From the NCBI GenBank assembly GCA_965223265.1, contig OZ244999.1:2304001-2368000 (forward strand): a DNA stretch of 64,000 nucleotides, in the 5' to 3' direction. Shown in pieces: positions 1,171-19,776 of this stretch. The translations under genes and the position numbers were made by a program. The notes under the pieces were generated by a model. That model did no database searches and was not told where the DNA came from. It saw nothing but the letters and a program-made list of their open reading frames with translations. The stretch comes from Planctomycetota bacterium. GTDB taxonomy: Bacteria; Planctomycetota; UBA8108; SXIK01. Position 1 is the stretch's first letter. Every line of letters begins with the position of its first letter.

Positions 1171-1422
1171 TTTTCTTGGCTGTAGGCCCAGATATTGCGC
1201 CGGTCGACAGTGCTGCGTCCAAACACCAACAAAGACCAGCAATCGATGGGCGAGTTCGCTGCGGAGACGGGGTATGGACGCAGCGCGTCCGTGTGAAGAG
1301 GAGGAGTTTTGGGGCCGAGGCGACTTCTGAGAAGGTGCGATTCCGCGTGCACGAGTCGCGACCATGCCTTACGATTGGCGTGGATTCGTGGTTCACTGGG
1401 AGTAAACCGGGACTATTTCACC

Positions 1423-4400: not shown

Positions 4401-5082
4401 GGTATCGCTCGTCGGAGTCGAACTCGCCGCGGTGGGTGTGACGTTTGACGGAATGGATGTGTTCGGTGGCGAGTTGTTGACCTTGGCGCCCGGAGGGTAC
4501 GTGGTCGTTGTCCGTAATGTTGAAGCCTTCACCGCGCGCTACGGCAGCGATGGGATCAGGATCGGCAGTACCTTTGCCGCCGGAAAGACGCTGTCGAACT
4601 CCGAGCAAGAGCTGGCGGTGACCGGGGCGTTTGGCGAGGACTTACTTCGCTTTCGCTACTTGGACGATTGGCAACCCACAACGGACGGCGGCGGCTATTC
4701 GTTAGTGATTCTCGATCCCACCGCGCCGCGAGAGAGCTGGGCCGACGGATCCAGTTGGCGAGCGAGCAGCAGTATCGACGGTTCTCCAGGCCGGGCCGAT
4801 CCGGTGCCGGACAGCCTGCAGCTTCCCGCCGACATCAATCAAGACCGCAAGCTTGATCTCTCCGACCCGATTGCGCTTCTCGCGCATCTGTTCCGGGGCA
4901 TCCAGAGCCGGCCATGCGCGACGGATGAGGCCAACGACTTGCTCAACGACTCCAACGGCGACAGCACGGTCGATCTTGCCGATGCGACCTACACGCTGCT
5001 GCATTTGTTTGCGTCCGGACCACCGCCGACGCTCGGCAGTGGGTGCGTGCCAATCGAGGGCTGCCCGTCTCTATGTGAGTGA
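1423..5082 (+). CDS. Secreted CotH-kinase family protein with lamin-tail domains, CHB/Fn3-associated domains and a C-terminal dockerin-like repeat
   Basis: Signal peptide after ATG 1423. Lamin-tail VISEFMAAN..DSSDWVE; CotH motifs RGSST..PKKSWRL, DPSLMRN, YVGVY..EKVKR, GPIWDFD; dockerin DINQDRKLDLSD / DSNGDSTVDLAD. Confidence 0.85.
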   Translation: MFFRSSRRQRLAVAILLTAVFSFLAQPPACLAQGLVISEFMAANDIALFDSDGDSSDWVEVTNTTNAPLDLDGWSLSDNPQQLRKWVFPPLELAARESLVVFASSKDRRAPGSELHTNFRLSGGGEFLALVEPNGSTIATEFRPEYPQQFAHASYGFPMQVDAVEALGSGQLSYFVPPNDDLGASWIDVGFDDTGWSSGAFPLGFDSKDTPTLVVNTDVGAEMLEASATAYVRIRFDVSDPAGLDALILNIKFDDGFVAYLNGQEVARRHAPLEPTADGAATTEAAENSALFFEPIDISTSIGSLQASGNVLALYALNRSLANPDFFIDAELHGLRLLGVDTSTPRYFEHPTPGWPNSSGAPGVVTEPQFSHVGAAISEPFFLEITAGDGDLIRFTTDRTEPTELSPLYEGPIRIDASMEVRARAFVAGMVPSRTVREVFAMLDADLVDFSSDLPIVVFSSFSGRIEPVEPGDGHLFIFERSGDGRTRLTQPTEFAGAGFMRSRGSSTALHPKKSWRLEIRDGRGNDLNTPVLGMPAESDWILYGAHQIDPSLMRNAFMYELSNQMGRYAVRGRFCEVFLTTVTKDVERADYVGVYSFFEKVKRDPERIDIEALRVDHNTEPEVSGGYILKFDRGGPDDRQIDAGGASPLVVYPESDVVTDAQIDWITAYIDSFAASFDLPGSLDPSLPVLQKPYADFIDVGSWIDHHLLQELSRNSDALSLSTFFYKDRGGKMVKGPIWDFDRAVGAASTGTSVPEGWQCNFAHSWWGQMFRDPLFWQTYKERYLELRTSSWRTANFAAILDQFETEVAEAQARNFDHWGHEVIDHGSWAGEIEYLRGWLADRTAWMDAQFISAPVFSTPPGLVAAGTEVNITVDDSLPGLNCEEFRDIVLPQQGEVYYTTNGADPRGADFAPDPSAVLYTGEPLQVNDDTLFRARTLDGGGWSRLAEAGYVTSLAPLVVTEVMYNPAVKPEDNFGASNFEFVELQNVGDVPVSLVGVELAAVGVTFDGMDVFGGELLTLAPGGYVVVVRNVEAFTARYGSDGIRIGSTFAAGKTLSNSEQELAVTGAFGEDLLRFRYLDDWQPTTDGGGYSLVILDPTAPRESWADGSSWRASSSIDGSPGRADPVPDSLQLPADINQDRKLDLSDPIALLAHLFRGIQSRPCATDEANDLLNDSNGDSTVDLADATYTLLHLFASGPPPTLGSGCVPIEGCPSLCE

Positions 5083-5094
5083 AAGACTGTTTAG

Positions 5095-8000
5095 GTGGAC
5101 TCGATGATGCGTAACCAGGTAGCCGCACTTTTTGTCTTGACGTTGTTCGCGTTGAGCGCGTTCCTTCATGAAGAGCTCCGCGCGGCCGACTGTAATGGTA
5201 ACTTCGTCGAAGATGCCAACGACATCGCGTCCGGCGACAGCCTGGACTGTAACGTCAACAGCGTGCCGGATGAGTGCGAAGGAGCGCCTCCTACGTTCGA
5301 TTCGGCGACGTCGTTGATCGCCCCGGGCGTCGGCTCGGATTCGGTGATTGCTGACTTCGACGGCGACGAGCGACCCGATCTTATGCTCGGATTCCGCGGT
5401 GGTTTCTCTGTTCGACTCAGCAGCACGGGTGGCGATTTTGTCGACCGTGAGGACGTCGTCTACGAGGCCGGCGGGCCGACACGCCGCAGTTGGCGAAGCG
5501 GAGACATCGACGGTGACGGTGATTTGGATCTGGTGACGATCGATTTCGCCGGTTTGCTCTTCTACTTCAACGATGGTGGCGGGGCTTTCAACGAATCGCG
5601 ATCGATCGCCAGCGACGGCGTCGGGCGGTTCGTCGTCGTCGACTTGAATGCGGACGCGGTGGCGGACATCGTCGCGGCCTTCCCGCGGCAGAACATCGTC
5701 GGCGTTTTTACGGCGCTCGGCGGCGGTGACTTTTCCGCGCGGGTCGACCATGCCGTCGGTGACAACCCTGTGGCCATCGTCGCTGGCGAGTTCGATGGTG
5801 TGGCTGGTGCCGACGTTGGCGTGCTCAGCACCGATGCGCGTGTGGTGACGATCTTCGCCAACGACGGCGCTGGCCGGTTGGTGGCTTCGGCCTCGGTTCC
5901 GGTCGCAAGGGACCCGACAGATGTCTTCGTGGCGGAGGATTTCAACGGTGATGGGTTCACCGACTTCGTCGTCGGTAGGAATTCGTTCGCACTTCTCTTC
6001 GAGAATGATGGCGCTGGCGGTTTTGTCGTGCCGCCCCAGGAGCTGACCTCCGACGCGGAGACAGTCGTCGCGATGGGCGCCGGCGACACCGACGGTGATG
6101 GTGACATCGACCTCGTCGCGCGCTTCGTCGAGCCGTCTCGGGAAGTGCAGTTTTATCTCAACCAAGGTGACGGCGTATTCAATCGAGGCCTGTCGGTGAA
6201 TCTTGTGGCTTCGACGACCTCGATTCGCGTTCAGGATCTCAGTGGAGACTCCGTGAGCGATGTGGTGATGGTCGGCTCTACGGTCAAAGAAGTGGTGGTC
6301 CTTTGGAACTCGCAGGATGAGACTCGCTTGCCTTTGTTGACTCCCCAAACCTACGAGGTTCTCGGGGAGCCCCACACGGCCGACCTAGGTGACATGGATG
6401 GCGACGGTGACCTCGATATCGTCACCGGAAACAACAACGACAACACGATCTCGGTCCTCTTGAACCAAGGCGACGGTACGTTTGTGCCGCGGCTAGATCG
6501 ACTTTCGCTGCAGTCGTTCTCGCTCGCATTGGCCGACCTAAACGGCGACGGTGCGCTCGATATCGCATCGGTAAACGCTGCACAGGCTGTTCATATCTTC
6601 TTGAACGACGGAACGTCGACAATGGGTGAGCCGGAGAAATATATCGTCGGTAGCAATGCCTTTCACATTCTTGTCGACGATCTGAACGGCGACGGCTCGG
6701 GTGACGTGGTGACGACGAATCGCGGCAGCAGTTCGATCTCTCTTCTCATGAATGCCGGCGATGGCACATTTTCCGATCGGAATGACTATCCTGTTGGTAG
6801 CGATCCGCGCGCTGCGGTTGCGGCGGATCTCGATCGCGACGGTTCCGTGGACATCGCGGTCGCCAGTCATGGCGCCGGCGCCGTCTATCGTCTTCTCAAC
6901 GACGGAAGCGGAGCTTTGGGAGTCGCGGAACAGTTTCCGATCGCCGATCGACCGAACTTCATCGCCGCCGGTGATTTTGACAACGACGGACATGTCGATC
7001 TGCTCACGGGGAGTGAACTCGGGTCCAGCGTCAATCCGCTCTGGAACGTCGGGGATGGAAGTGCCAACTTCGAGGTTGGCGCACGCGTCCGAACGAATAA
7101 CTCACCCTACTCGCTGACCACGGCCGACTACAACGAAGACGGGTTCGTCGACGTTGTCAGTGTTGCCGAGGTCGCCGATCGCGACGGGAACAGCAGTGTG
7201 GCTCTGATGCTGAACCGCGGCGATCGTGGCTTCAAGGCGCCGCTGAGCTTGCGCGCCGGCGTCGGGCCGCGTTACGTGCTCTCGGGAGACATCGACGCTG
7301 ACGGCGACATCGACATCATCAGCGCCAATCGATTGTCGCAGGACGTCACCGTCTTTCTCAGCGGTGTTGCGGAGAGTGCGACCGTCACGCATTTGAGCGA
7401 AGTCTGCACAGAGTCTGACTATTTCAGTATTTCATTGCCGACGAGTCGCAGCACGAACCGTCGTCGCATTGGCAAGTACGTCGCACCGTCACGCGATGGT
7501 GAGGGGTTGCTTGGCCCTCTGTTTCAAAACGCGAACACGTTCGAGTTGCACGAGGAGTTTCTCGGGACGGTATTCCCCGAGGAGTTTGGTTTTGTGCTGG
7601 AGGACCCGGCGGCGTACGACGACCTTGTGGGCCGGCGCGCAACGCGAGACTACTACGTCGGGACGCTGGATCTCCGCCAGCGTCCTGAGGGTTTTCTCTA
7701 CACGTTCAACATTTTCGCGGACACGGGTTTTGACAGCCGCGAGACGCTGAGCCAAGAGGAAGTGGGTTCGGTGTTCGAGCGTTTGAGCGCGTCTTTTTCG
7801 CTGCGTCCACTGGCGTACGCCCCTGAGACGCAGCTGGCAAAGGCAGCTGCAGAGGAGTGGGAGTCGGCACCGTTTCCGATTTTCTTTGACGACTCCCGTC
7901 CAGCGTTCGACTACGAGGCTTACACGCTGTCTGTGGGCTACGGTCGAGTGCGTTTGCTGACGCTGGAGGAGTTTTCGGAGCTGAACTCAGCGGGCCGTTT

Positions 8001-10581
8001 CACGTTTCAGGACATTTTGGTGATCGACGAGTCGCCTGCAGATATCGAAGGTGTGGTGGGCGGTGTGATCACGGGCACGATTCAGGGCGAGCTGAGCCAC
8101 GTGGCGATCCGCACGGCGCGGCGCGGGACCCCGAACGCTTTTGTAGCGAACGCTCGCGAGGAGTTTTCGCAGTACGCCGGTGAGCTGGTGCGCCTGGAGG
8201 TGTTCCCGGGAGAGCACTTTGTGACGGTGGTGGACGCATCGGAAGCGGAGGAGTTTTGGTCTCAGAACCGCCGGGAGCTGTCGAGCGACCCTGAGATCGA
8301 CACGGAGTACCGCGGTTTTGACGATCTTTTTGAGCTGGACGTGGAGGCTTTCGGTGGTCGCCCTGAGTCTCGCTACGGTGGCAAGGCGTCGAACTTCGCG
8401 CGTCTGCAGCGGGTGCTGACAGGCGAGCTGTCGCAGTATGTGGAGTCCGGTTTTGCGATCCCGGCGTCGTACTACACGGAGTTTATGAGCACGAACGAGG
8501 TAGAGCTTGGCGGGCGGAGTCTGACGTACGAAGAGTGGCTGTTTGAGCTTTTGTCGGACCCGTCGATCGAGAGCGACTCTCAGGCTCGCTTTGAAGCCCT
8601 GGAGGAGTTTCGCTCGTTTGTGCGTGCGAACGGCGCAGTGGATAGCGAACTGGTGTCGCTCCTGGCGTCGCGGATCGAGAGCGTTTTCGGCGATGTTCGG
8701 CGTATGGTGCGGTTTCGCTCGTCGTCGAACGTAGAGGACGCCCTGGAGTTCAACGGTGCGGGCCTTTATGAGTCGACGTCTGTGTGCGCTCAGGACACGC
8801 TGGATCCAGCGAGCCCGGACAGCTCTCACTGCGATGCGAGCCGCAGCAATGAGCGGACGATTGAGCGTGCGCTGAAGAAGGTTTGGGCGAGCCTGTGGAC
8901 GTTCCGGGCGCATGAGGAGCGGACGTTTTACCAGATTGACCCGTCGCGCGCGGCGATGGGTATTTTGGTGTCGCGAGCGTTTTTGGACGAGTTGGCGAAC
9001 GGAGTGGCGTTCACAGGGAATCCACGCGACGTGGGCGACAAGCGCTACGTGGTGACGGCGCAGGCGGGTGAGGCGAGCGTAGTGAGCCCTGAGCCTGGTA
9101 CGACGGTAGAGCGCAGCGTTCTGGAGCTTGACGAGAGCGGTGAGGTGGTGCGGGTGATCCGCAGCCGCGCGTCGTCGCTTGTGGAGCCTGGTGAAGTGGT
9201 GCTGAGCGAGGAGAAGCTTCGCGAGCTTGGCTCCCTGATGTGGCATGTGGATCAGAGGCTGCCGCTGGACCTTGAGGGTCACGCGCGCGAGGAGGTGATC
9301 CTGGACTTTGAGTTCAAGGTGGAGCCTGACGGTTCGTTGGCTGTGAAGCAGGTGCGTCCTTTTTTGATCCCGAGCGCGTCGATCCAGACGCCGACGTTTT
9401 CGCTGGAGGTTCCGGCCGGTACGCGGGTGTGCGGAGTGTTTTCGGCTGAGCGTGTGAACCGTGAGCCTCGTGTGGAGTATGAGACGAAGAGCGTTGTGGA
9501 GCTGCGGGCGGGAGTGTACGAGCTGGCGACGTCAGGCGGAGTGATCGAGGCGGACTTGATCGAATCGCTACGCTTTGGCTCGGAGCGCTCGCTAGCGCAG
9601 CCGCTGGGCCCCGGGCGCTTCACTGTGACGCCGATCCCCGAGGAGGGTAGCCGGACGAACTACCGCTTCAGCTACGAGCAGGAGTTCGAGCTGGCAGCGG
9701 ATGGGAGCACGTACGCCGGGGGGCGTCTTTTGGTGCAGATTCTGCAGCTGGACTACCTCGGTCGCGGTGAGGTGGCGCTGGACGGCGCGAAGGTGCTGGA
9801 CGATGAGTTTTTGACGTTCGATCTGGTGATGGGGGCCTCAGTGGACGGTGAGCCTCTGGTGGGCTACTCCTCGTGCAGTTACCGTGAGCTACCTCGCTGG
9901 GAGCTGTCGGTGGATCTTGGCGGTGGTTCGCGGGTGGATCTGGTGGAGCGGTTTTTGCCGTCAGAGAACCTGGCGGCGACAGGCCCCGCGAGCTTGGTGG
10001 AGGCGGTGGTGGAGCTTGGTGGAGTGCGCCAATCGACGCGCGACTACTGGCGCCTGGTGTACACGGCGCGTCGTCACAACCTGGATGCTCGCTACTGGGT
10101 GGAGCTGGATCCGTTGGTGGAGGTTGAGGTGCAGGGCGAGCCGCGGGCGGTTCGGGTGGTGGAGCTTTTGGCGCCGGAGCCGCCGATCGGTGAGGATGTG
10201 GACGTGGGCTCGGCGCGGGTGCGTTACCTCGATGAGAACCTGGAGGTGCTCGTGGACCGGGGAGTGGTTGGCTTCGCGAAGTCGGAGCGGGAGGTGGAGC
10301 CCGGAGAGCGCTTTGTGCGCGGCGACGTGGAGGGCGACGGTCGAGTGGATGTGAGCGACGCGATCGCGCTGCTCAGTTATCTGTTCAAGCGCGGTGCGGT
10401 GCCGAGCTGTCAGAAGGCGGCCGACGCCGACGACAGCGGTCGCCTGAACGTCAGCGACGCGGTGACAGTGCTGCTGTCGCTCTTTGCCGGCACCGGGCCG
10501 CTGCCGCCGCCGGCGAGCGTTTGCGGCGAAGACCCTACCAGCGACGCCCTCTCGTGTGAGACGTTTGCCCTGTGCGAGTAA
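5095..10581 (+). CDS. Secreted FG-GAP/VCBS repeat protein with phospho-His domain, PPDK-type ATP-grasp (PEP/pyruvate-binding N) domain and C-terminal dockerin
   Basis: Signal peptide; DCNGN..DCNVNSVPDECE motif; many DxDGDGxxD repeats; GELSHVAIRTAR; YGGKASN, RFRSSSNVED..GAGLYES, KVWASLW, NGVAFT, DFEFK, KQVRP; RGDVEGDGRVDVSD dockerin. Confidence 0.85.
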   Translation: MDSMMRNQVAALFVLTLFALSAFLHEELRAADCNGNFVEDANDIASGDSLDCNVNSVPDECEGAPPTFDSATSLIAPGVGSDSVIADFDGDERPDLMLGFRGGFSVRLSSTGGDFVDREDVVYEAGGPTRRSWRSGDIDGDGDLDLVTIDFAGLLFYFNDGGGAFNESRSIASDGVGRFVVVDLNADAVADIVAAFPRQNIVGVFTALGGGDFSARVDHAVGDNPVAIVAGEFDGVAGADVGVLSTDARVVTIFANDGAGRLVASASVPVARDPTDVFVAEDFNGDGFTDFVVGRNSFALLFENDGAGGFVVPPQELTSDAETVVAMGAGDTDGDGDIDLVARFVEPSREVQFYLNQGDGVFNRGLSVNLVASTTSIRVQDLSGDSVSDVVMVGSTVKEVVVLWNSQDETRLPLLTPQTYEVLGEPHTADLGDMDGDGDLDIVTGNNNDNTISVLLNQGDGTFVPRLDRLSLQSFSLALADLNGDGALDIASVNAAQAVHIFLNDGTSTMGEPEKYIVGSNAFHILVDDLNGDGSGDVVTTNRGSSSISLLMNAGDGTFSDRNDYPVGSDPRAAVAADLDRDGSVDIAVASHGAGAVYRLLNDGSGALGVAEQFPIADRPNFIAAGDFDNDGHVDLLTGSELGSSVNPLWNVGDGSANFEVGARVRTNNSPYSLTTADYNEDGFVDVVSVAEVADRDGNSSVALMLNRGDRGFKAPLSLRAGVGPRYVLSGDIDADGDIDIISANRLSQDVTVFLSGVAESATVTHLSEVCTESDYFSISLPTSRSTNRRRIGKYVAPSRDGEGLLGPLFQNANTFELHEEFLGTVFPEEFGFVLEDPAAYDDLVGRRATRDYYVGTLDLRQRPEGFLYTFNIFADTGFDSRETLSQEEVGSVFERLSASFSLRPLAYAPETQLAKAAAEEWESAPFPIFFDDSRPAFDYEAYTLSVGYGRVRLLTLEEFSELNSAGRFTFQDILVIDESPADIEGVVGGVITGTIQGELSHVAIRTARRGTPNAFVANAREEFSQYAGELVRLEVFPGEHFVTVVDASEAEEFWSQNRRELSSDPEIDTEYRGFDDLFELDVEAFGGRPESRYGGKASNFARLQRVLTGELSQYVESGFAIPASYYTEFMSTNEVELGGRSLTYEEWLFELLSDPSIESDSQARFEALEEFRSFVRANGAVDSELVSLLASRIESVFGDVRRMVRFRSSSNVEDALEFNGAGLYESTSVCAQDTLDPASPDSSHCDASRSNERTIERALKKVWASLWTFRAHEERTFYQIDPSRAAMGILVSRAFLDELANGVAFTGNPRDVGDKRYVVTAQAGEASVVSPEPGTTVERSVLELDESGEVVRVIRSRASSLVEPGEVVLSEEKLRELGSLMWHVDQRLPLDLEGHAREEVILDFEFKVEPDGSLAVKQVRPFLIPSASIQTPTFSLEVPAGTRVCGVFSAERVNREPRVEYETKSVVELRAGVYELATSGGVIEADLIESLRFGSERSLAQPLGPGRFTVTPIPEEGSRTNYRFSYEQEFELAADGSTYAGGRLLVQILQLDYLGRGEVALDGAKVLDDEFLTFDLVMGASVDGEPLVGYSSCSYRELPRWELSVDLGGGSRVDLVERFLPSENLAATGPASLVEAVVELGGVRQSTRDYWRLVYTARRHNLDARYWVELDPLVEVEVQGEPRAVRVVELLAPEPPIGEDVDVGSARVRYLDENLEVLVDRGVVGFAKSEREVEPGERFVRGDVEGDGRVDVSDAIALLSYLFKRGAVPSCQKAADADDSGRLNVSDAVTVLLSLFAGTGPLPPPASVCGEDPTSDALSCETFALCE
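7405..10581 (+). repeat. Copy 1 of a 3177-bp near-identical coding module (dikinase-like domains plus dockerin)
   Basis: Aligns to 13386..16562 at a constant offset of 5981; about 8 amino-acid differences seen by eye. Confidence 0.95.
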
Positions 10582-10703
10582 TTCCGAGGAACACGGGGGC
10601 GGTGTGAACGAGACTACCGTTCCTGCGACGCACTCCGATTCCCGCACGTCGCCAGATAGCCGGCAGGCGCTCACTCTGCCTGTAGCGCGTGACGCGCAAC
10701 TGT

Positions 10704-11000
10704 CCGAGGCTGTGAAGTTTTTGGAGCCTGCCAGCGTAACTCATGGTCACGCTCCACGGTCCACGGTCAGTTCACGTCCGGAACGGCACACGGCGTGTGC
10801 CTGCTACTATCAAGACGTCGCCACCACGATCTTCAAAGTAGCAGGCACACGCCGTGTGCCGTTCCGGCATTGAGCGCCAAGCGTGACCGTGAATGTGACC
10901 GTGAATTACGTTCGAGCGCCCCAAGAACTTCACAGCCTCGCCGTGTGCCATCCGAGGAGGACCGTGGGTTACGACGGCACGTTCAAAAAACTCACAACCT
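10704..11000. repeat. Nested inverted-repeat element with a central GTAG-type REP doublet (REPIN-like)
   Basis: Perfect 31-bp arms 10778-10808 and 10837-10867 (ccggaacggcacacggcgtgtgcctgctact). Outer IR cgaggctgtgaagtttttgg / ccaagaacttcacagcctcg (10704/10940). Homolog at 42692-42903. Confidence 0.8.
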
Positions 11001-11084
11001 CTCTCGATGTCGCTCTTGCCATGAACGGCGTGTCACCTGAGAATTGTGACGTGAATTTTCTGCATCACCCCAAGAGTTAGTGAG

Positions 11085-14000
11085 ATGACCCGCAAAGGAC
11101 CGATTGTTTGGATTCTCGCCGGCCTGCTTGGTTTGGGCCTTGGTGCGCCTGTGCGCGCAGTCGACTGTAATGGCAACGGGCTCGAGGACGCCGAAGATCT
11201 TTCGGCGCAGACGAGTGAGGACTGTAACGACAACGCGATCCCAGATGAATGCGAAGGCCCGCCGCTCGTTTTTAGTTCGACGCTGCGGCTGGAGGTCGAC
11301 AACGTCGCGCGGCAGATCATGCCGGGCGATTTCGACCTGGACGGACGGCAGGATTTCGCCGTCGGCACGTCGCGGTCGCTTGTTCTCAAGCTCAACGATG
11401 GTAGCGGCACAGCGGAAAACTACCCGGAAACCATCGTCAGCGTCGACAGTCTTGGCCTCAGAGCCTGGGCGCACGGCCATTTCGACGCGGACGACAGCAC
11501 CGATTTCGTCGCCCTGGACACACAAGGACCGTGGGTGCTCCTCGGCGACGGAGTTGGGGGAGTCCAGGCGCCGCTCAGGTTGGAGCAGGCGAGCGGAGGC
11601 AACCAACTGGCCTGCGGCGACCTTTCGGGCGACGGTGTCGACGATCTGGTCATCGTCACCAGTCGCCCGCAGGCACTGGTCACCGTCCTCGTGGCGGCGG
11701 GCGACGGAAGTTTTGGCCCCGCCGCAAGTCTCCTCGATGGACTGGGGCCAACGGCGGTCGGGCTTGGAGACCTCGACGGCGACGGTGCGCTCGATCTCGC
11801 TGTCCTGCACCGATCCCTCGCAGCTGTCTCTGTCGTCATCAACGACGGCGCGGGCACGCTCGTACCGGCCGCGCCGCTGACGATTGGCGGCGACAACCCT
11901 GAGACGCTTGCTGTGGTCGACGTCGACGCCGACGGTCTTGCGGATCTCGCCGTCGGCGATCGCGTCGGTTTCCGCCTCTATCTCAATCAGGGTGGCACCT
12001 TCAGCGATGCCATTGACCTGGTACACGCCGGCGCGGAGACTTCCGCGCTGACAGCTGGCGACTTGAACGGCGACGGCAACGTCGATCTTGTCGGCGCACT
12101 CCGCGTTCCGCGGAGCGTCGCTATCTTCACCGGCACAGGAGATGGTCGCTTCAACAGCGGTTTTGGACCGAGCCTCGATACCTCCAGTGTGGGCCTCGCG
12201 GTCGCAGACGTTGACAGCGACGCGGCGATGGACGTCATCACCATTCCGTTCGGCCTCAAGCGCGTCACAGCATTTCGAAACGACGTTCAGAGCCGCTCAC
12301 TGACGGTCGACCTGGGCTCGCCCATCACGTACGTCGCCGAAGGCAGACCTCACACCGGGGAGGCGCTGGACTTCGACGGTGACGGCGACGTGGACGTCGT
12401 CACCGGCAATAGCTTCGACCAGACGATTTCCGTGTTGAGGAACCAGGGTGACGGTACCTTTGTCGCTACCGCCCTGCGGTTGTCAGTGACCGCCTTTTCG
12501 GTTGCTGCGGGTGATTACGACAGCGACGGCGACGCCGACCTGGGTGTCGTCGGACATGGAAATCGGATTATCCTTTTTGAAAACAACGGCAACGCTGAGT
12601 TCGACATGGCGGGCGGGATCCCGCTGGGACAAACGGCGTTTCACGTTGCCGCCGCCGACGTGACGGGAGATGGCCGCGTCGAGTTCATAGCAGCGCTTCG
12701 CGGCGGTGACGCGGTCGCTATCGCTCAGAACACAGGTGGCGGCTCGTTTGGTCAGACGAAGCGGTTTGTTGTCGGGCGTGCGCCACGTGCTGTCGCAGCT
12801 GGCGATTTCGACGGTGACGGCCTTGTCGACATCGTGACGGCAAACGAGAATTCAGCGGACCTGTCGGTGCTTTTCAACGACGGCGTTGACGGTGAAACGG
12901 TGGAGTTTCTCTCGCCTCTACAGGTCCCGCTGGCGTCAAGCCCCTTCTTCGTCGCTGCTGGAGACGTCGACGACGACGGTCATGTCGACATCATCGCTTC
13001 GAGCGAGGTGGGTCGAACCGTTTCGGTGCTGTGGAGCGATGGCGCTGGTGGGTTCTTACCGCCGGCGACTTGGGATCTCGTGCACCAGCCCTACTCGCAC
13101 ATCGCGGTGGACCTCACCGCTGATGGGCTCCTTGAGATCATCAGCGTCGCCGAGATTTCCGACCGCACCGAGAGCACGACTGTTGTGCTTGAGAACCTCA
13201 GTGGTCGCACATTCGGACCGTCGAAGCGATTCCGCGTCGGCTCGGGGCCTCGATTCGTCGTTGCGGCAGACTTCGACGATGACGAATCTCTCGACCTCAT
13301 GAGCCTCAACCGAGGCTCGAGCGATGTGACGGTGCTCCTCAACGAGTCGCGCCCGTCCTCCGAGCTCGACTTCCTCGAGACAGTTTGCACAGAGTCTGAC
13401 TATTTCAGCATTTCATTGCCAACGAGTCGTAGGACGAGTCGTCGTCGCATTGGCAAGTACGTCGCACCGGCACGCGATGGTGAGGGGTTGCTTGGCCCAC
13501 TGTTTCAAAACGCGAACACGTTCGAGCTGCACGAGGAGTTTCTCGGGACGGTATTCCCGGAGGAGTTTGGTTTTGTTCTGGAGGACCCGGCGGCCTACGA
13601 CGACCTGGTGGGGCGCCGCGCAACGCGTGACTACTACGTCGGGACGCTGGATCTCCGGCAGCGCCCAGAAGGTTTTCTCTACACGTTCAACATTTTCGCG
13701 GACACGGGTTTTGACAGCCGCGAGACGCTGAGCCAAGAGGAAGTGGGTTCGGTGTTCGAGCGTTTGAGCGCGTCTTTTTCGCTGCGTCCACTGGCGTACG
13801 CCCCTGAGACGCAGCTGGCAAAGGCAGCTGCAGAGGAGTGGGAGTCGGCACCGTTTCCGATTTTCTTTGACGACTCCCGTCCAGCGTTCGACTACGAGGC
13901 TTACACGCTGTCTGTGGGCTACGGTCGAGTGCGTTTGCTGACGCTGGAGGAGTTTTCGGAGCTGAACTCAGTGGGCCGTTTCACGTTTCAGGACATTTTG

Positions 14001-16562
14001 GTGATCGACGAGTCGCCTGCAGATATCGAAGGTGTGGTGGGCGGTGTGATCACGGGAACGATTCAGGGCGAGCTGAGCCACGTGGCGATCCGCACGGCGC
14101 GGCGCGGGACCCCGAACGCTTTTGTAGCGAACGCTCGCGAGGAGTTTTCGCAGTACGCCGGTGAGCTGGTGCGCCTGGAGGTGTTCCCGGGAGAGCACTT
14201 TGTGACGGTGGTGGACGCATCGGAAGCGGAGGAGTTTTGGTCTCAGAACCGCCGGGAGCTGTCGAGCGACCCTGAGATCGACACGGAGTACCGCGGTTTT
14301 GACGATCTTTTTGAGCTGGACGTGGAGGCTTTCGGTGGTCGCCCTGAGTCTCGCTACGGTGGCAAGGCGTCGAACTTCGCGCGTCTGCAGCGGGTGCTGA
14401 CAGGCGAGCTGTCGCAGTATGTGGAGTCCGGTTTTGCGATCCCGGCGTCGTACTACACGGAGTTTATGAGCACGAACGAGGTAGAGCTTGGCGGGCGGAG
14501 TCTGACGTACGAAGAGTGGCTGTTTGAGCTTTTGTCGGACCCGGCGATCGAGAGCGACTCTCAGGCTCGCTTTGAAGCCCTGGAGGAGTTTCGCTCGTTT
14601 GTGCGAGCGAACGGGGTAGTGGATAGCGAACTGGTGTCGCTCCTGGCGTCGCGGATCGAGAGCGTGTTCGGAGATGTTCGACGTATGGTGCGTTTTCGCT
14701 CTTCGTCGAACGTAGAGGACGCCCTGGAGTTCAACGGTGCGGGTCTTTATGAGTCGACGTCTGTGTGCGCTCAGGACACGCTGGATCCAGCGAGTCCGGA
14801 GAGCTCTCACTGCGATGCGAGCCGCAGCAATGAGCGGACGATTGAGCGTGCGCTGAAGAAGGTTTGGGCGAGCCTTTGGACGTTCCGGGCGCATGAGGAG
14901 CGGACGTTTTACCAGATTGACCCGTCGCGCGCGGCGATGGGTATTTTGGTGTCGCGTGCGTTTTTGGACGAGTTGGCGAACGGCGTGGCGTTCACTGGGA
15001 ATCCCCGCGATGTGGGGGACAAGCGCTACGTGGTGACGGCGCAGGCGGGTGAGGCGAGCGTAGTGAGCCCTGAGCCTGGTACGACGGTAGAGCGCAGCGT
15101 TCTGGAGCTTGACGAGAGCGGTGAGGTGGTGCGGGTGATCCGCAGCCGCGCGTCGTCGCTTGTGGAGCCTGGTGAAGTGGTGCTGAGCGAGGAGAAGCTT
15201 CGCGAGCTTGGCTCCCTGATGTGGCATGTGGATCAGAGGCTGCCGCTGGACCTTGAGGGTCACGCGCGCGAGGAGGTGATCCTGGACTTTGAGTTCAAGG
15301 TGGAGCCTGACGGTTCGTTGGCTGTGAAGCAGGTGCGTCCTTTTTTGATCCCGAGCGCGTCGATCCAGACGCCGACGTTTTCGCTGGAGGTTCCGGCCGG
15401 TACGCGGGTGTGCGGAGTGTTTTCCGCTGAGCGTGTGAACCGTGAGCCTCGTGTGGAGTATGAGACGAAGAGCGTTGTGGAGCTGCGGGCGGGAGTGTAC
15501 GAGCTGGCGACGTCAGGCGGAGTGATCGAGGCGGACTTGATCGAATCGCTACGCTTTGGCTCGGAGCGCTCGCTAGCGCAGCCGCTGGGCCCTGGGCGCT
15601 TCACTGTGACGCCGATCCCCGAGGAGGGTAGCCGGACGAACTACCGCTTCAGCTACGAGCAGGAGTTCGAGCTGGCAGCGGATGGGAGCACGTACGCCGG
15701 GGGGCGTCTTTTGGTGCAGATTCTGCAGCTGGACTACCTCGGTCGCGGTGAGGTGGCGCTGGACGGCGCGAAGGTGCTGGACGATGAGTTTTTGACGTTC
15801 GATCTGGTGATGGGGGCCTCAGTGGACGGTGAGCCTCTGGTAGGCTACTCCTCGTGCAGTTACCGTGAGCTACCTCGCTGGGAGCTGTCGGTGGATCTTG
15901 GCGGTGGTTCGCGGGTGGATCTGGTGGAGCGGTTTTTGCCGTCAGAGAACCTAGCGGCGACAGGCCCCGCGAGCTTGGTGGAGGCGGTGGTGGAGCTTGG
16001 TGGAGTGCGCCAATCGACGCGCGACTACTGGCGCCTGGTGTACACGGCGCGTCGTCACAACCTGGATGCTCGCTACTGGGTGGAGCTGGATCCGTTGGTG
16101 GAGGTTGAGGTGCAGGGCGAGCCGCGGGCGGTTCGGGTGGTGGAGCTTTTGGCGCCGGAGCCGCCGATCGGTGAGGATGTGGACGTGGGTTCTGCGCGGG
16201 TGCGGTACCTCGATGAGAACCTGGAGGTGCTCGTGGACCGGGGAGTGGTTGGCTTCGCGAAGTCGGAGCGGGAGGTGGAGCCCGGAGAGCGCTTTGTGCG
16301 CGGCGACGTGGAGGGTGACGGTCGAGTGGACGTGAGCGACGCGATCGCGCTGCTCAGTTATCTGTTCAAGCGCGGTGCGGCGCCGAGCTGTCAGAAGGCG
16401 GCCGACGCCGACGACAGCGGTCGCCTGAACGTCAGCGACGCGGTGACAGTGCTGCTGTCGCTCTTTGCCGGCACCGGGCCGCTGCCGCCGCCGGCGAGCG
16501 TTTGCGGCGAAGACCCTACCAGCGACGCCCTCTCGTGTGAGACGTTTGCCCTTTGTGAATAG
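11085..16562 (+). CDS. Paralogous secreted FG-GAP repeat / phospho-His / PPDK-type ATP-grasp / dockerin protein
   Basis: Same architecture as 5095..10581. Divergent FG-GAP N-terminus; near-identical C-terminal ~1058 aa. Confidence 0.85.
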   Translation: MTRKGPIVWILAGLLGLGLGAPVRAVDCNGNGLEDAEDLSAQTSEDCNDNAIPDECEGPPLVFSSTLRLEVDNVARQIMPGDFDLDGRQDFAVGTSRSLVLKLNDGSGTAENYPETIVSVDSLGLRAWAHGHFDADDSTDFVALDTQGPWVLLGDGVGGVQAPLRLEQASGGNQLACGDLSGDGVDDLVIVTSRPQALVTVLVAAGDGSFGPAASLLDGLGPTAVGLGDLDGDGALDLAVLHRSLAAVSVVINDGAGTLVPAAPLTIGGDNPETLAVVDVDADGLADLAVGDRVGFRLYLNQGGTFSDAIDLVHAGAETSALTAGDLNGDGNVDLVGALRVPRSVAIFTGTGDGRFNSGFGPSLDTSSVGLAVADVDSDAAMDVITIPFGLKRVTAFRNDVQSRSLTVDLGSPITYVAEGRPHTGEALDFDGDGDVDVVTGNSFDQTISVLRNQGDGTFVATALRLSVTAFSVAAGDYDSDGDADLGVVGHGNRIILFENNGNAEFDMAGGIPLGQTAFHVAAADVTGDGRVEFIAALRGGDAVAIAQNTGGGSFGQTKRFVVGRAPRAVAAGDFDGDGLVDIVTANENSADLSVLFNDGVDGETVEFLSPLQVPLASSPFFVAAGDVDDDGHVDIIASSEVGRTVSVLWSDGAGGFLPPATWDLVHQPYSHIAVDLTADGLLEIISVAEISDRTESTTVVLENLSGRTFGPSKRFRVGSGPRFVVAADFDDDESLDLMSLNRGSSDVTVLLNESRPSSELDFLETVCTESDYFSISLPTSRRTSRRRIGKYVAPARDGEGLLGPLFQNANTFELHEEFLGTVFPEEFGFVLEDPAAYDDLVGRRATRDYYVGTLDLRQRPEGFLYTFNIFADTGFDSRETLSQEEVGSVFERLSASFSLRPLAYAPETQLAKAAAEEWESAPFPIFFDDSRPAFDYEAYTLSVGYGRVRLLTLEEFSELNSVGRFTFQDILVIDESPADIEGVVGGVITGTIQGELSHVAIRTARRGTPNAFVANAREEFSQYAGELVRLEVFPGEHFVTVVDASEAEEFWSQNRRELSSDPEIDTEYRGFDDLFELDVEAFGGRPESRYGGKASNFARLQRVLTGELSQYVESGFAIPASYYTEFMSTNEVELGGRSLTYEEWLFELLSDPAIESDSQARFEALEEFRSFVRANGVVDSELVSLLASRIESVFGDVRRMVRFRSSSNVEDALEFNGAGLYESTSVCAQDTLDPASPESSHCDASRSNERTIERALKKVWASLWTFRAHEERTFYQIDPSRAAMGILVSRAFLDELANGVAFTGNPRDVGDKRYVVTAQAGEASVVSPEPGTTVERSVLELDESGEVVRVIRSRASSLVEPGEVVLSEEKLRELGSLMWHVDQRLPLDLEGHAREEVILDFEFKVEPDGSLAVKQVRPFLIPSASIQTPTFSLEVPAGTRVCGVFSAERVNREPRVEYETKSVVELRAGVYELATSGGVIEADLIESLRFGSERSLAQPLGPGRFTVTPIPEEGSRTNYRFSYEQEFELAADGSTYAGGRLLVQILQLDYLGRGEVALDGAKVLDDEFLTFDLVMGASVDGEPLVGYSSCSYRELPRWELSVDLGGGSRVDLVERFLPSENLAATGPASLVEAVVELGGVRQSTRDYWRLVYTARRHNLDARYWVELDPLVEVEVQGEPRAVRVVELLAPEPPIGEDVDVGSARVRYLDENLEVLVDRGVVGFAKSEREVEPGERFVRGDVEGDGRVDVSDAIALLSYLFKRGAAPSCQKAADADDSGRLNVSDAVTVLLSLFAGTGPLPPPASVCGEDPTSDALSCETFALCE
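13386..16562 (+). repeat. Copy 2 of the 3177-bp coding module
   Basis: Aligns to 7405..10581. Confidence 0.95.
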
Positions 16563-16849
16563 TGGATGGGGGCCGTCTTCGCTGCTGCTGATGCTGACCG
16601 ATTCCTTCATGTGCTAGGGAAATGGCAGGTAGCGTGGGAACGGTGCGTTCAATCCGTGGGATCTGAGTTGCCTAGGCACGTCTTTCTCGATACGATAAAA
16701 CGTTCATGTCGGGTGCGAGTGGGTTTGTTGGGTCACCTCCTCCTGAATTCTGTTCGCCGCTAGCTCTCTGTCTCAAGCTGGCTTTCGACCTAAGGCAGAC
16801 AGACGGAGGAGTGATAGGTTTTTTTCTCGGTTCTGATGGGAGGGTTGGT

Positions 16850-19465
16850 ATGTCTAAGAGACAACCACTGATGCTCTGCTTGGCTCTTTTAGCCGTCACC
16901 ACGGCGCCGGTTGGCTTTGGTCAGGTCACGAACGTTTTCGACGATTTTTCGACTGATCCGTTTGAAGAGGGTAATCCGCGCTGGGGACGGAACCAGTCGG
17001 ACCCCCACACGGCGGCCTGGATCCCACCGGAGGCGCCTCTTTGCGTCGGGACGCTCCCGGACTTGACTGAGATTTTCTCACCGTACTTCGAGTGCGGCAA
17101 TGATCAGCAGCCGGCACCCAATAACTTTCCGTGCTCGATCTACAGCGAAGCCAACATCGAGGACATCGGCGAGGTCCCCGCGAACTTCGGATTCGTCGCG
17201 CTCAACTCCGGTAAAGATCAGCGTTCGAATATCTACCAGCGCGAGCGCGTCACCATCGCCGACGTCCAGGTCCGCATGATCCTCGAAGCCTCGGGTGGTT
17301 GCCGATTCGACAACCCCGCGGACGGCTTCGGCGTCACGCTCGTTGAGCTGCAAAACGAGCCGCTCCTCGGCGACGGTGGTGGTAGTAACGGCGTCACGGG
17401 CTATGTCTGCCCGGAAGGCCAGGGCTGTCACGAAAACGACGGTAACAACGACGGCGTCCTTGACGGTGGTCAGCAGATTATCTTCGAAGCCGACGTCAAC
17501 GGTGGTAACGCGGGCGACGCCCGAAGTGCCACGCGCGAAGACCACGTCGGTATCTACTACGTCCCGCAGGGTGCCCCCGGTGGGAACGTCCCGCCGCCGC
17601 CAAACGGCCCGACGATCCTCATGCCCGAGGGCGTGCTCCTCCACAGTCGTACGAACATTATCGATGCGCAGGCTGACTACGTGCCGAACCGCTTCGAGAT
17701 CACGGCTTTTCTGAAGGGACAGACCGCGGCGATCGAGCTTGACTTGCTCGACCAGAACATCGACTTCGGCCGCGTCGCCCAGGTGACCTTCGACGGCCTG
17801 TCGTCGTTCGAGGGTTACGTCGTTGCCGCGGGCGCCACCGGTGGCCGTGACGCGGCGAACTACCTGCACGAAATCGAGATCAGCGCCATCGAGGGCGAGT
17901 GCGACGTCATTCCGGCGCCGGCAGCCTTCACGCACCGCTTCACTGGTCTGCAGGACGACGAGTGTGGTGACTTCGTTCCCGGTCAGAACATTGGTGTCAA
18001 CGTCGACATCGCGAATCTGCGCGACATCGGTGCGTGCCCGATCGACACGACGGTTGTGCGCGACACGCTGCCGCTTGGGTTCACCGTCGCCGGATCGCCC
18101 AGCCAGAACGGTGTCATCATTCCTGCCGCGGATCCGGACGTTGACCGCACCGCCGTTGAATGGACACTGACGCCGGCGCAGATCAACGCTGGCGTCGCCC
18201 TCAACTACACCGCAACCGCAAACTTCCCGGATGCGGAAGAGACCGAGTTCGAGTTCAACCTGACCTACTCCGAGCTTGCTGTCAGCGACGCCCGCGCCGA
18301 CGTGGACATCCTGTCGCCGGTTGGCGGTTTCGATCCGTTCTGCGGCGGAATCACTTGCTGGAACATCCTCGGGCCGTTCCGCAATCCGTTCTGCGATCCC
18401 TCTTGCATCGAGGAAGACGGCGCCGTGCCGTCGCGTTTCCTTCAAGCTGATTGGGCGGTCGCGGACCAAGACAATGACGGCACGGCCGAGTCCGGCGTCG
18501 CCGATCTTGTCTGGCGTCCGGGCCTTCCCGTCAACATCGTCTTCAACGACGATCTCGCTCGCACGGGCGATGACCTGCTCAGTGATGCGTTCTCACCGTC
18601 GCCGGGTCTGCACCCGACGCCGCTCGAGACGACCCTCAACGGCGGTGGTAGTGCCCCGGAAGTGTTCGAGCACACCAATGGTGACAGTCTCATCAACTTC
18701 CAGAGCGAAGTCTTTGGTGGCGTGAACCTCGGCAGTTTCGCCTACGCGCAGTGCTACGTCGAGTCCGACGCCACGCGCGAAGTGTTCGTCAAAGCCGGTG
18801 CCTCGAAGAACTTCTTCGTCGAGCTCAACGGTCGCACGATCATTCAGCGCAACAACTGCCTCGGCATCACCAGCTGCCGCGCCCGGACGTCCGCTTGTAG
18901 CGGCGCTCGGAACCCGGAGAAGTCGGTGGTCCCGGCGGACGTCGATGATCCGAACACCGACATTGACGAGCGCGAGCCGATCACGCTGATCCAGGGTATC
19001 AACACGCTGCTGGTCGGCGTCCACAACGAGGACGACGTCTTCAGCGGCAAGTGGGACTTCTGGATTCGATTCCAAGACAGTGCCGACAACGGTGGTGGCG
19101 CCCTGCCGATCACTGAAGGGCTGACGATTCGTTTGACGCCTGGTGGAACCAACGAAGTCGGTCTTGTTCCTGGTGACTACAACAGTGACGGCGGCCGCGA
19201 CATCTCCGACCCGATCGCGCATCTCAACTTCCAGTTCGGTGGTTTTGAGCTCGATCCGTGTTACGTCGTTGCAGGGACCAATCCTCCCGTCCTCCGGGAC
19301 ACGGGAGTGGCGATCCTCGACTACAACGGCGACGGTAGTGTCGACATCTCCGATCCGATCGGCGATCTCAACTTCCAGTTCGGTGGCACGGGTGTGCCGC
19401 ACGTTCTTGGCGACGTCTGCCGCGTCTTCGATGACGAAGGCTGCATCGAGATCTGTACACCGTAA
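16850..19465 (+). CDS. Secreted protein: L-type (legume) lectin-like domain, Ig/DUF11-like domain, beta-sandwich domain, dockerin-like C-terminus
   Basis: ATG 16850 after GGGAGG; signal peptide. Lectin-like PADGFGVTLV, DHVGI, GYVVAAGATGG; VVRDTLPLG; WNILGPF..AYAQCYV..GINTLLV; GDYNSDGGRDISD / DYNGDGSVDISD. Confidence 0.7.
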   Translation: MSKRQPLMLCLALLAVTTAPVGFGQVTNVFDDFSTDPFEEGNPRWGRNQSDPHTAAWIPPEAPLCVGTLPDLTEIFSPYFECGNDQQPAPNNFPCSIYSEANIEDIGEVPANFGFVALNSGKDQRSNIYQRERVTIADVQVRMILEASGGCRFDNPADGFGVTLVELQNEPLLGDGGGSNGVTGYVCPEGQGCHENDGNNDGVLDGGQQIIFEADVNGGNAGDARSATREDHVGIYYVPQGAPGGNVPPPPNGPTILMPEGVLLHSRTNIIDAQADYVPNRFEITAFLKGQTAAIELDLLDQNIDFGRVAQVTFDGLSSFEGYVVAAGATGGRDAANYLHEIEISAIEGECDVIPAPAAFTHRFTGLQDDECGDFVPGQNIGVNVDIANLRDIGACPIDTTVVRDTLPLGFTVAGSPSQNGVIIPAADPDVDRTAVEWTLTPAQINAGVALNYTATANFPDAEETEFEFNLTYSELAVSDARADVDILSPVGGFDPFCGGITCWNILGPFRNPFCDPSCIEEDGAVPSRFLQADWAVADQDNDGTAESGVADLVWRPGLPVNIVFNDDLARTGDDLLSDAFSPSPGLHPTPLETTLNGGGSAPEVFEHTNGDSLINFQSEVFGGVNLGSFAYAQCYVESDATREVFVKAGASKNFFVELNGRTIIQRNNCLGITSCRARTSACSGARNPEKSVVPADVDDPNTDIDEREPITLIQGINTLLVGVHNEDDVFSGKWDFWIRFQDSADNGGGALPITEGLTIRLTPGGTNEVGLVPGDYNSDGGRDISDPIAHLNFQFGGFELDPCYVVAGTNPPVLRDTGVAILDYNGDGSVDISDPIGDLNFQFGGTGVPHVLGDVCRVFDDEGCIEICTP

Positions 19466-19554: not shown

Positions 19555-19776
19555 GAGCCTTTGACGTCGTCGCCCCCGACGGCGAGCCCCCACGTCGACA
19601 CCGCTCTCCACGTCGGAGGATTCCCTTGGTACGATGGAGGGGCGAGGTTCTCTTCGATCGTGTTGGACATCGGGGAGTCCCGCTGTCGAGGTGGACGCCA
19701 GATGGCGCCGGTGAGAGAGATGTTTCGAGTTCTTCAGCATTCGTTTCGACGTGTCTTTGGTCCCTCGGGCGCGCCC

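Follow-up and report, generated by a model that had tools for sequence, protein, structure and literature searches.

Two adjacent genes of a Planctomycetota bacterium encode members of a large, putatively exported dikinase-type family with a histidine swivel domain ahead of the ATP-grasp

We analysed a window of 64,000 nt from a Planctomycetota bacterium (contig OZ244999.1, positions 2,304,001–2,368,000 of the forward strand; coordinates below are window positions unless a genome position is named). An earlier note on this DNA had singled out two of its genes as encoding secreted proteins with the domain order of glucan, water dikinases. According to the list of open reading frames (ORFs) and their translations, these genes, here called A and B, lie on the same strand and are open throughout (Table 1). 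Both proteins have the same module order, in which a signal-like N-terminus is followed by FG-GAP propellers, a domain that we call X, a histidine (His) domain, a PPDK_N ATP-grasp, a second domain that we call Y and a dockerin. From sequence comparison and structure modelling, both genes appear to encode real, intact members of an uncharacterised family of exported, dikinase-type proteins, in which the type of engine is known while the setting, the partner domains and the scale are new.

The peptide with the putative phospho-acceptor histidine, GGVITGTIQGELSHVAIRTARRGTP, begins at residue 989 of the gene A protein and at residue 986 of the gene B protein, and in both it is followed by the PPDK_N match, so that the His codons precede the ATP-grasp as had been claimed. 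The FG-GAP parts of the two proteins are merely 36.5% identical (BLASTP on the N-terminal parts). From the FG-GAP/X boundary (7401 in A and 13382 in B), the genes share an ungapped block of 3171 nt with 98.36% identity by blastn, which ends 10 bases before the stop codon and suggests that the entire catalytic module was recently copied, by partial duplication or by gene conversion. Its 52 differences are unevenly clustered, with 43 of them synonymous and 9 in non-synonymous codons, and the non-synonymous to synonymous ratio (pN/pS) of 0.07 in this block indicates that both copies are under purifying selection. On PF00404, for which the cut-off is 22.9 bits, the dockerin-type modules score 24.9 bits (A) and 42 bits (B). 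Matches above cut-off in the genome number at least 109 for dockerin and 3 for cohesin.

Table 1. Features of genes A and B, in window positions.
Feature	Position	Strand	Details
Gene A	5095..10581	+	1828 aa counted from GTG 5095; likelier start ATG 5104 or 5107 (MMRNQ...)
Gene A signal-like N-terminus MMRNQVAALFVLTLFALSAFLHEELRA	5104..5184	+	Cys-rich DCNxN...PDEC motif next; translation, Kyte-Doolittle heuristic
Gene A FG-GAP/VCBS-type propeller region, residues ~63-755	5281..7359	+	PF13517 FG-GAP_3, 11 stretches, E 5.3e-60; PF01839 E 1e-18
Gene A domain X, residues 765-938, predicted alpha/beta	7387..7908	+	no Pfam match at E<=10; inside the model with pLDDT 90.7
Gene A predicted phospho-His swivel domain, residues 939-1060	7909..8274	+	structural matches to phospho-His carriers
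Gene A putative phospho-acceptor His1002 codon	8098..8100	+	position from peptide match
Gene A linker from His domain to ATP-grasp, residues 1061-1092	8275..8370	+	pLDDT 60-73 over last four 10-residue blocks
Gene A PPDK-type ATP-grasp with Cys-pair insertion, residues 1093-1423	8371..9363	+	PF01326 E 7.8e-17
Gene A domain Y, residues 1430-1735	9382..10299	+	mainly beta, seemingly two barrel-like halves; AF2 model
Gene A dockerin-type module, residues 1743-1792, then Cys-rich C-terminal tail	10321..10470	+	PF00404 24.9 bits
Gene B	11085..16562	+	1825 aa, architecture as gene A
Gene B signal-like N-terminus MTRKGPIVWILAGLLGLGLGAPVRA	11085..11159	+	translation, hydrophobicity heuristic
Gene B FG-GAP propeller region	11262..13340	+	PF13517, 11 stretches, E 2e-60
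Gene B domain X, residues 762-935	13368..13889	+	within block 98.4% identical to gene A
Gene B predicted His swivel domain; His999 codon 14079-14081	13890..14255	+	translation, block identity
Gene B PPDK-type ATP-grasp, residues 1090-1420	14352..15344	+	PF01326 E 1e-16
Gene B domain Y, residues 1427-1732	15363..16280	+	within 98.4% identical block
Gene B dockerin-type module, residues 1740-1789	16302..16451	+	PF00404 E 1.1e-10, 42 bits
Near-identical block, both copies	7401..10571 and 13382..16552	+	covers X, His, ATP-grasp, Y, dockerin; blastn

PPDK_N (PF01326; cut-off 27 bits) matches with 62.0 bits in the gene A protein and 61.6 bits in the gene B protein, and it also matches 49/49 short and minimal relatives and 24/24 distant representatives of the family. 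The motifs lie in register with those of the phosphoenolpyruvate (PEP) synthase (PEPS) and the pyruvate phosphate dikinase (PPDK) of the same genome (GGK, RSS..ED, FAG/GAG, WASLW/FASLF, GV.F, D.E and Q.RP). G10, K12, D319, E321 and R336 are invariant in a six-sequence ATP-grasp alignment that includes the genome's own PEPS, and the nucleotide and Mg motif residues, whose nucleotide- versus Mg-binding roles we take to be as in PPDK, are invariant or at least 90% conserved in alignments of 119 and 16 sequences. With hhalign, the family profile matches the genome's PEPS over the whole ATP-grasp (Prob 96.3%, E 1.7e-9), and against the PDB it matches PEPS (8a8e, E 4.5e-14) and the ATP-grasp of rifampin phosphotransferase (RPH; E ~7e-8), these two enzymes' ATP-grasps being the sole matches of the PDB sequence search with either a single sequence or a profile. 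NCBIfam models gave merely partial PEP-synthase-like matches over the ATP-grasp of the ORFs. An insertion that carries a Cys pair invariant in the family is absent from PEPS and from the glucan, water dikinase (GWD)-like proteins in the alignments. On these sequence comparisons the ATP-grasp is motif-complete and of the PPDK type, as the earlier note had described it.

To the N-terminal side, residues 760–1092 were modelled with AlphaFold on a 51-row alignment, with a mean predicted local distance difference test score (pLDDT) of 90.7. In VIA-align, the best match to the His domain was RPH (5hv1; Z 11.1, root-mean-square deviation 2.6, 103 aligned), followed by the PEP-utilizer-like C-terminal domain of a pyruvate kinase (2e28; Z 10.3), Enzyme I (5woy, Z 10.1; further matches at 9.9 and 9.1) and PPDK (1vbg, Z 7.8; another at 7.2), and the top matches cover model residues 180–295, which are protein residues 939–1054. 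Foldseek against the PDB returned PPDK (5jvl, E 8.6e-5) and RPH (5hv2, E 1.1e-4, prob 1.00), along with the isolated phosphoryl-carrier domain of PPDK (2fm4), the N-terminal domain of Enzyme I and other swivelling beta/beta/alpha domains. His1002 is the first residue of model helix 243–251, about 90 residues upstream of the ATP-grasp, and the sequence around it matches up with the TSH/TCH motifs that PEPS, PPDK and Enzyme I-type proteins of this genome carry. The histidine is retained in 117/119 aligned relatives, in 33/33 long paralogues from the same genome and in 16/16 rows of an alignment of the minimal, ~700-aa form. The His segment is thus modelled as a swivelling phospho-carrier domain, which bears out what had been proposed for it. 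The pLDDT falls to 60–73 in the final 30–40 residues of the model, toward the ATP-grasp, and because of this drop the linker between the two domains is probably flexible. The Pfam model PEP-utilizers (PF00391) gave no match at E<=10 on residues 760–1092 or 940–1060 and none at E<=0.1 among the 49 short and minimal relatives; across the genome it matches six canonical proteins and 1/35 paralogues of the dikinase family (E 1.3).

Domains X and Y flank this engine. Searched against Pfam, residues 760–1092 and 1430–1740 gave no match at E<=10 except for a weak one of PF22973 on the His segment. All core forms of the family contain domain X, the ~700-aa minimal forms included. Searches of the ESM Atlas gave results that we treat as leads only: for X, the second-ranked entry was a cluster from Chlorophyta, with GWD1_pHisD present in 65% of its members (score 0.76), and for the His domain with the ATP-grasp, the top entries were bacterial PPDK_N clusters (0.93–0.96), one with GWD1_pHisD in 15% of its members. 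For Y, the AF2 model of residues 1425–1740 (pLDDT 94.1, predicted template modelling score 0.90) is nearly all beta strand with two short helices, and it holds an invariant Cys pair (C22 and C170; 51 rows). Foldseek on Y found nothing at E<=0.001, the best match having E 0.011 and prob <=0.15; neurotoxin binding-domain rows, also at prob <=0.15, were discounted as meaningless. VIA-align gave assorted up-and-down barrels with a best Z of 6.9, within the tool's stated noise range. Since residues 1425–1740 are modelled almost wholly as beta strand, the absence of a PEP/pyruvate TIM barrel after the ATP-grasp, which had been noticed in the translations, is well founded, and no such barrel appeared in Pfam or among the fold-search matches listed.

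These fold matches raise the question of whether the proteins could be small-molecule phosphotransferases of the RPH kind, with X and/or Y binding an antibiotic or a signal that is modified or inactivated in the envelope. In VIA-align no structure matched the His domain better than RPH (Z 11.1), RPH likewise pairs an ATP-grasp and a swivelling His domain with an acceptor domain that is not a TIM barrel, and Y weakly resembles ligand-binding beta barrels of the avidin, AttH and Fsa2 types (Z 6.1–6.9). However, the RPH, Enzyme I and pyruvate kinase matches lie within ~1 Z unit of one another and the Y matches are at noise level. The order of domains in RPH is also different, with ATP-grasp, acceptor domain and His domain in succession (its ATP-grasp aligns at 150–329 and its His-domain match extends up to residue 867), and RPH is a cytoplasmic enzyme without X, Y, FG-GAP or dockerin parts. 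Macromolecular targets would better account for the large propellers, the dockerin and the divergence of binding parts among the 35 copies, and we regard a small-molecule role as quite unlikely.

The scale of the family becomes apparent in the genome itself. The 9.18 Mb genome contains 36 matches to the module, 35 of them full-length, at 28 places and some in tandem. Of the full-length paralogues, 33 lie in frames of 1794–1917 aa and two (1074 and 1098 aa) are without propellers. The 35 copies amount to about 190 kb, or 2% of the genome, and we therefore argue for an important role in the organism. Among the sequencing runs listed as containing this sequence there is none of RNA, and the four DNA runs belong to a single study and could be the origin of the assembly. 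Mean pairwise identity among the 33 long paralogues rises from the FG-GAP part (31%) through Y (40%), X (46%) and the dockerin (53%) to the His domain (58%) and the ATP-grasp (62%); by sequence, the engine is conserved and the recognition parts are variable. Because the engine is kept while these parts have diverged, the 35 paralogues look like a repertoire for many targets.

Relatives are widespread in sequence collections. An exhaustive search with residues 940–1440 (His domain plus ATP-grasp) yielded 2311, 1763 and 771 cluster representatives at E<=1e-3, 1e-10 and 1e-30, respectively, with lengths from about 700 to 6419 aa; chance is no plausible explanation for matches on this scale. A word-indexed search returned 332 relatives in the length band searched, for which all listed sources were metagenome-assembled genomes (MAGs) of Planctomycetes/Planctomycetota. 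In a sample of 201 genomes of the phylum, the full-length form was found in the order to which the window belongs. A pattern scan of species-representative genomes confirmed 407 relatives, and we examined the context of the best 80 of these 407 loci, the titles of which are nearly all Myxococcota, Polyangiaceae, Nannocystis, Sandaracinaceae or Deltaproteobacteria MAGs, some others being evidently automatic labels.

In these 80 loci the core is a ~700-aa, lipoprotein-like protein that consists of X, the His domain and the ATP-grasp. In 29/68 loci with at least 1200 nt of flank, the core is followed within 1.5 kb by a gene of ~375 aa in the same orientation, and in 37/80 that gene is present anywhere in the locus; its profile matches Planctomycete domain Y over 264 columns (Prob 99.2%, E 1.2e-19). 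At one locus (L074), the stop codon of the core overlaps the likeliest start of the Y gene. In 23/80 loci there is a gene for a ~735-aa protein that combines MopE-type Cys motifs with FG-GAP repeats, and 21/23 of these loci have Y as well. On this sequence evidence, the FG-GAP protein, the X-His-ATP-grasp core and Y, joined in one polypeptide in the window proteins, are encoded by separate genes that lie close together in the Myxococcota-labelled MAG loci. Adjacency there and fusion here form our main support for the three parts working together. Complex prediction for a Myxococcota-type core with its neighbouring Y gave ipSAE values of 0.01, 0.46 and 0.00 against a mark of 0.32, which we counted neither way. 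The earlier note had also suggested that the FG-GAP propellers recognise the substrate, and this suggestion gains strength only from the comparison of gene fusion with gene neighbourhood across the two phyla.

Whether these proteins leave the cytoplasm was judged with a Kyte-Doolittle hydrophobicity heuristic over the paralogues and by reading of N-termini. A short basic and then hydrophobic N-terminal segment was found in 34/35 paralogues. In 32/33 long paralogues an A-x-A-like site stands directly before the Cys-rich DCNxN...PDEC motif, and for the remaining one the chosen start codon fell downstream of the DCNxN motif. Of the 16 rows in the minimal-form alignment, 14 are full-length, and nearly all of these have a Cys at the lipobox position after a hydrophobic leader, as do the Myxococcota-type Y proteins. 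Accessory domains in relatives comprise LTD, CHB_HEX_C, Fn3_assoc, beta-helix, Lcl_C, BNR, TSP3 and dockerin domains and once a CHAT domain, all of extracytoplasmic kinds. Signal-like and lipobox-like N-termini, conserved Cys pairs and the dockerin thus support export indirectly, and the earlier description of the proteins as secreted stands on these marks. We read each gene as encoding an exported, surface- or scaffold-tethered enzyme with a histidine-swivel dikinase engine, with a probability of roughly 60%.

If the N-terminal hydrophobic segment were instead a membrane anchor or a product of a mis-called start, the proteins could be cytoplasmic dikinases acting on an internal polymer, as bacterial GWD-like proteins would be. 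Genuine GWD-like proteins of the same phylum indeed lack a signal-like N-terminus, and a GT4/starch-synthase-like gene is next to them. A cytoplasmic location is hard to reconcile with the cleavage-site-like A-x-A and ensuing Cys-rich motif of nearly all long paralogues, with the lipobox-like Cys of minimal forms and separate Y genes, with the invariant Cys pairs that cytoplasmic relatives lack and with the dockerin, FG-GAP, LTD, Lcl_C and BNR partner domains, and we consider it very unlikely.

The relation to GWD-type dikinases is where the earlier description needs to be qualified. Glucan, water dikinase and phosphoglucan, water dikinase (PWD; EC 2.7.9.4 / 2.7.9.5) resemble the window family in having a phospho-His domain N-terminal to a PPDK-type ATP-grasp and no PEP/pyruvate TIM barrel. 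According to a review, there is no solved high-resolution GWD or PWD structure for fold comparison (PMC12892837). As comparators we took genuine GWD-like proteins from a scan of the 201 genomes of the same phylum with PF22973 (GWD1_pHisD), which matched in 6/201 genomes at 110–116 bits. At one of the loci (L106, G135:C1:3042500-3053500), Pfam assigns Ig_N_CWD1, GWD1_pHisD and PPDK_N to an ORF of 1184 aa and AP_endonuc_2, GWD1_pHisD and PPDK_N to one of 1169 aa. The nine GWD-like ORFs of L106–L110 have no signal-like N-terminus. As side observations, the tandem GWD-type genes at L106 adjoin a GT4/starch-synthase-like gene, the AP_endonuc_2 part is a xylose-isomerase-like TIM barrel fused before GWD1_pHisD and PPDK_N, and L106–L110, from other Planctomycetota, are bacterial GWD homologues that may merit interest of their own.

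The hhalign comparison of the family profile with an alignment of these nine GWD-like proteins was collinear over 318 columns (Prob 98.5%, E 1.5e-15), beginning where the His domain begins and reaching two thirds of the way into the ATP-grasp (query 211–611 to template 737–1063); with one GWD-like sequence as template, the match had Prob 93.4% and E 2.4e-7. The His motif is ELSHVAIRTARRG in the window proteins and LVSHLSVRARNLG in the GWD-like consensus. On the His segment of the window protein, GWD1_pHisD gives E 0.048 and 13.7 bits (cut-off 27). Across the genome it gives matches at 27 places, in open frames of family size (1074–1917 aa), with a best score of 24.4 bits and all under cut-off, and among the 49 short and minimal relatives 15 match at E<=0.1 with a best score of 19.8 bits. 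No starch- or glucan-binding module (Ig_N_CWD1, CBM45 or CBM20) was found in the window proteins, in which Pfam shows FG-GAP, PPDK_N and dockerin only; unlike GWD, the window family is without Ig_N_CWD1 or a CBM-type starch module. Signal- or lipoprotein-like N-termini, the Cys-pair insertion, X, Y, FG-GAP and dockerin, in turn, are found in the window family alone and not in the GWD-like proteins.

In an ATP-grasp tree of 48 rows, whose deep nodes carry no star and in which PPDK has a branch of 3.4, the family and three related, seemingly exported proteins form one clade with a Shimodaira-Hasegawa-like approximate likelihood ratio test (SH-aLRT) value of 94. An approximately unbiased (AU) test did not reject a single clade of all His-first proteins (p 0.294), a grouping that was defined after the tree had been seen. 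Because GWD1_pHisD stays below cut-off and the ATP-grasp forms its own clade, we read the family as sharing the order and the His-domain type of GWD and yet being a separate lineage, not a member of GWD/PWD. What survives of the GWD-like reading is therefore the domain order, in which the family is collinear with bacterial GWD-like proteins; the cut-off of the GWD His domain was missed, the starch module is absent and the ATP-grasp does not go with GWD in the tree. Beside the family in the tree branch three proteins of 664–776 aa with TPLSHVNLRA before a C-terminal ATP-grasp (L122, L123 and L124; G200:C4:6441883-6445770, G128:C72 and G128:C19). Two of them have a signal-like N-terminus, the start of L122 is ambiguous, and one of the three scores 26.4 bits on GWD1_pHisD, just below cut-off.

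PEPS and PPDK share the ATP-grasp motifs and a swivel-fold phospho-His carrier with the window family. They differ in placing the ATP-grasp first, where the window family has the His domain first and no C-terminal TIM barrel, in being cytoplasmic and in the PEP-utilizers Pfam model, which does not detect the His domain of the window family. To our knowledge, PPDK-, PEPS- and GWD-type dikinases are known only as cytoplasmic or plastidial enzymes. The literature search, which left most subscription journals outside its coverage, found no publication on an exported or extracellular dikinase, in line with the earlier statement that no extracellular bacterial dikinase has been characterised.

The neighbourhood of the two genes contains another type of phosphotransferase. 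Proteins with CotH-kinase domains flank the dikinase genes at 1309–5082 and 19561–23064, both with LTD, CHB_HEX_C and Fn3_assoc domains and the second also with TIG. Of the 55 CotH matches in the genome, many fall in frames with a dockerin at the end, and together the matches seemingly form a second large set of exported phosphotransferases. Like the dikinase family, CotH-type exported atypical kinases are large, signal-bearing and phosphotransferase-like proteins, expanded in this genome and often with a dockerin; their LTD, CHB_HEX_C and Fn3_assoc partners also occur in relatives of the dikinase family, and they face the same puzzle of nucleotide supply. Their fold and chemistry are unrelated: CotH kinases have a protein-kinase-like fold and transfer the gamma-phosphate directly. 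Proximity of the two sets is a weak enrichment, with 13/35 dikinase paralogues within 20 kb of a CotH gene against 7.2 expected (p about 0.05, tandem copies uncorrected; 53/55 CotH matches were used, the other two being second fragments of the same frames).

Within this genome, no conserved operon partner of the paralogues was found. Their recurrent neighbours belong to the PSCyt2/PSD1, DUF1501, sulfatase and PQQ_2 families, which as a rule are abundant in Planctomycetota. Gene B is immediately followed by a 919-aa ORF (16706–19465) without a Pfam family at E<=0.001; this ORF contains an internal Met followed by the signal-like MSKRQPLMLCLALLAVTTAPVGFGQ and two C-terminal dockerin-like DxNxDGxxDISD repeats, and its product looks like an exported protein. 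Between genes A and B, a nested palindromic element occupies 10700–10945, with inner arms at 10778–10815 and 10830–10867 (38 nt, 95% complementary) and outer arms at 10705–10750 and 10895–10940 (46 nt, 80%). The element is a dispersed repeat with 124 matches in the genome, both strands counted, and several copies adjoin other paralogues, for example near genome positions 8282322, 8245952 and 4118026. Farther along the window are a 568-aa dockerin protein without other Pfam family (38669–40375), a GH88 and pectate-lyase fusion (35136–38375) and a GH5 cellulase-family protein (42918–46388). We take these GH5, GH88, pectate-lyase and other dockerin proteins as context only.

The preferred reading of an exported dikinase has to be weighed against several observations that count against it. 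All of the evidence for export is heuristic, and we know of no availability of ATP in the periplasm or outside the cell. The His is missing in 2/119 relatives, being Pro in P0007 and Asn in P0035. As for the GWD-like aspect, the 27-bit cut-off of GWD1_pHisD is never attained in the window, the genome or the 49 relatives, this model also gives sub-cut-off matches in 5/14 control genomes, the ATP-grasp alone matches PEPS at least as well as it matches one GWD-like sequence in hhalign, and the ATP-grasp tree places the family apart while the GWD-like clade (98*) joins PEPS weakly (SH-aLRT 88). The acceptor-site role that we assign to X is a guess. Finally, only 10/201 sampled genomes of the phylum have the family (E<=1e-20), so it is not a core function.

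Two of these points, the ATP that is not expected outside the cell and the loss of His in two relatives, could also be explained by a catalytically dead binding or structural module, in which the ATP-grasp and His domain serve as a scaffold or a nucleotide or phosphate sensor in a surface adhesin. This explanation fits poorly with the His and all nucleotide/Mg motifs being conserved down to ~40% identity and in two phyla, with the His and ATP-grasp parts being the most conserved in the paralogues and with the low pN/pS of the shared block, and it is highly improbable in our judgement.

Since the proteins look exported and ATP supply is a problem there, the engine may instead be real and its donor something other than free extracellular ATP. 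The donor could be another nucleoside triphosphate, nucleotide from lysed prey or host, or a PEP-like or polyphosphate-derived compound; alternatively, the enzyme could run in reverse, from phosphorylated polymer to AMP and Pi, or be of single use, with the His charged before export. PPDK-type chemistry is reversible, and the 55 CotH kinase-domain matches in the genome, many with a dockerin, share the donor question. However, the ATP-grasp keeps the full nucleotide/Mg motif set of the ATP-using PEPS and no recurrent donor-supplying partner lies beside the genes, and we hold a different donor or direction to be unlikely.

Returning to the exported dikinase, we envisage that the ATP-grasp would bind a nucleoside triphosphate and hand its beta-phosphate to His1002 or His999, and that the phospho-His domain would then swing to an acceptor site formed by X, perhaps together with Y. 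X is our choice for this site because no other extra domain is shared by all core forms, whether or not they have Y. The variable FG-GAP and Y parts would hold an acceptor outside the cytoplasm, which would thereby be phosphorylated; as in GWD, the working idea is that binding modules distinct from the engine hold a polymer acceptor. Each transfer by a dikinase costs two phosphoanhydride bonds, which would be an advantage where little nucleotide is to be had.

As a preprint and a review describe, GWD phosphorylates crystalline starch and thereby opens it to hydrolases (10.64898/2026.09.25.754361; PMC12892837). By analogy with the opening of starch crystallites by GWD, our leading guess, a tentative one, is that the acceptor belongs to the insoluble or polymeric extracellular substrates, such as a polysaccharide or a glycoprotein. 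In its fullest form the proposal is that these proteins constitute the first family of extracytoplasmic dikinases, with an FG-GAP recogniser, an X-His-ATP-grasp engine and a Y beta-barrel, organised as an operon in Myxococcota and fused in Planctomycetota, which would phosphorylate insoluble polymers for degradation or remodelling with scavenged or supplied nucleotide, the paralogues being a repertoire of targets. We consider this complete version possible and, as a whole, rather doubtful.

The above analyses suggest that a large family keeps the full dikinase engine together with sequence marks of export. They also bring to light X and Y as two uncharacterised, confidently modelled domains, and the split and fused systems make the functional link of the parts testable. 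If the proteins are active outside the cytoplasm, where Planctomycetota and Myxococcota obtain nucleotide in their envelope or surroundings becomes a question in itself, and because the same genome has 55 CotH matches, this question spans a whole set of exported phosphotransferases. Activity there would also add His-swivel phosphorylation of polymers or proteins to the ways in which bacteria treat extracellular substrates. If true, and together with the ~55 exported CotH kinases, this would point to extracellular phosphorylation on a large scale, as a hitherto unrecognised part of the economy of these bacteria.

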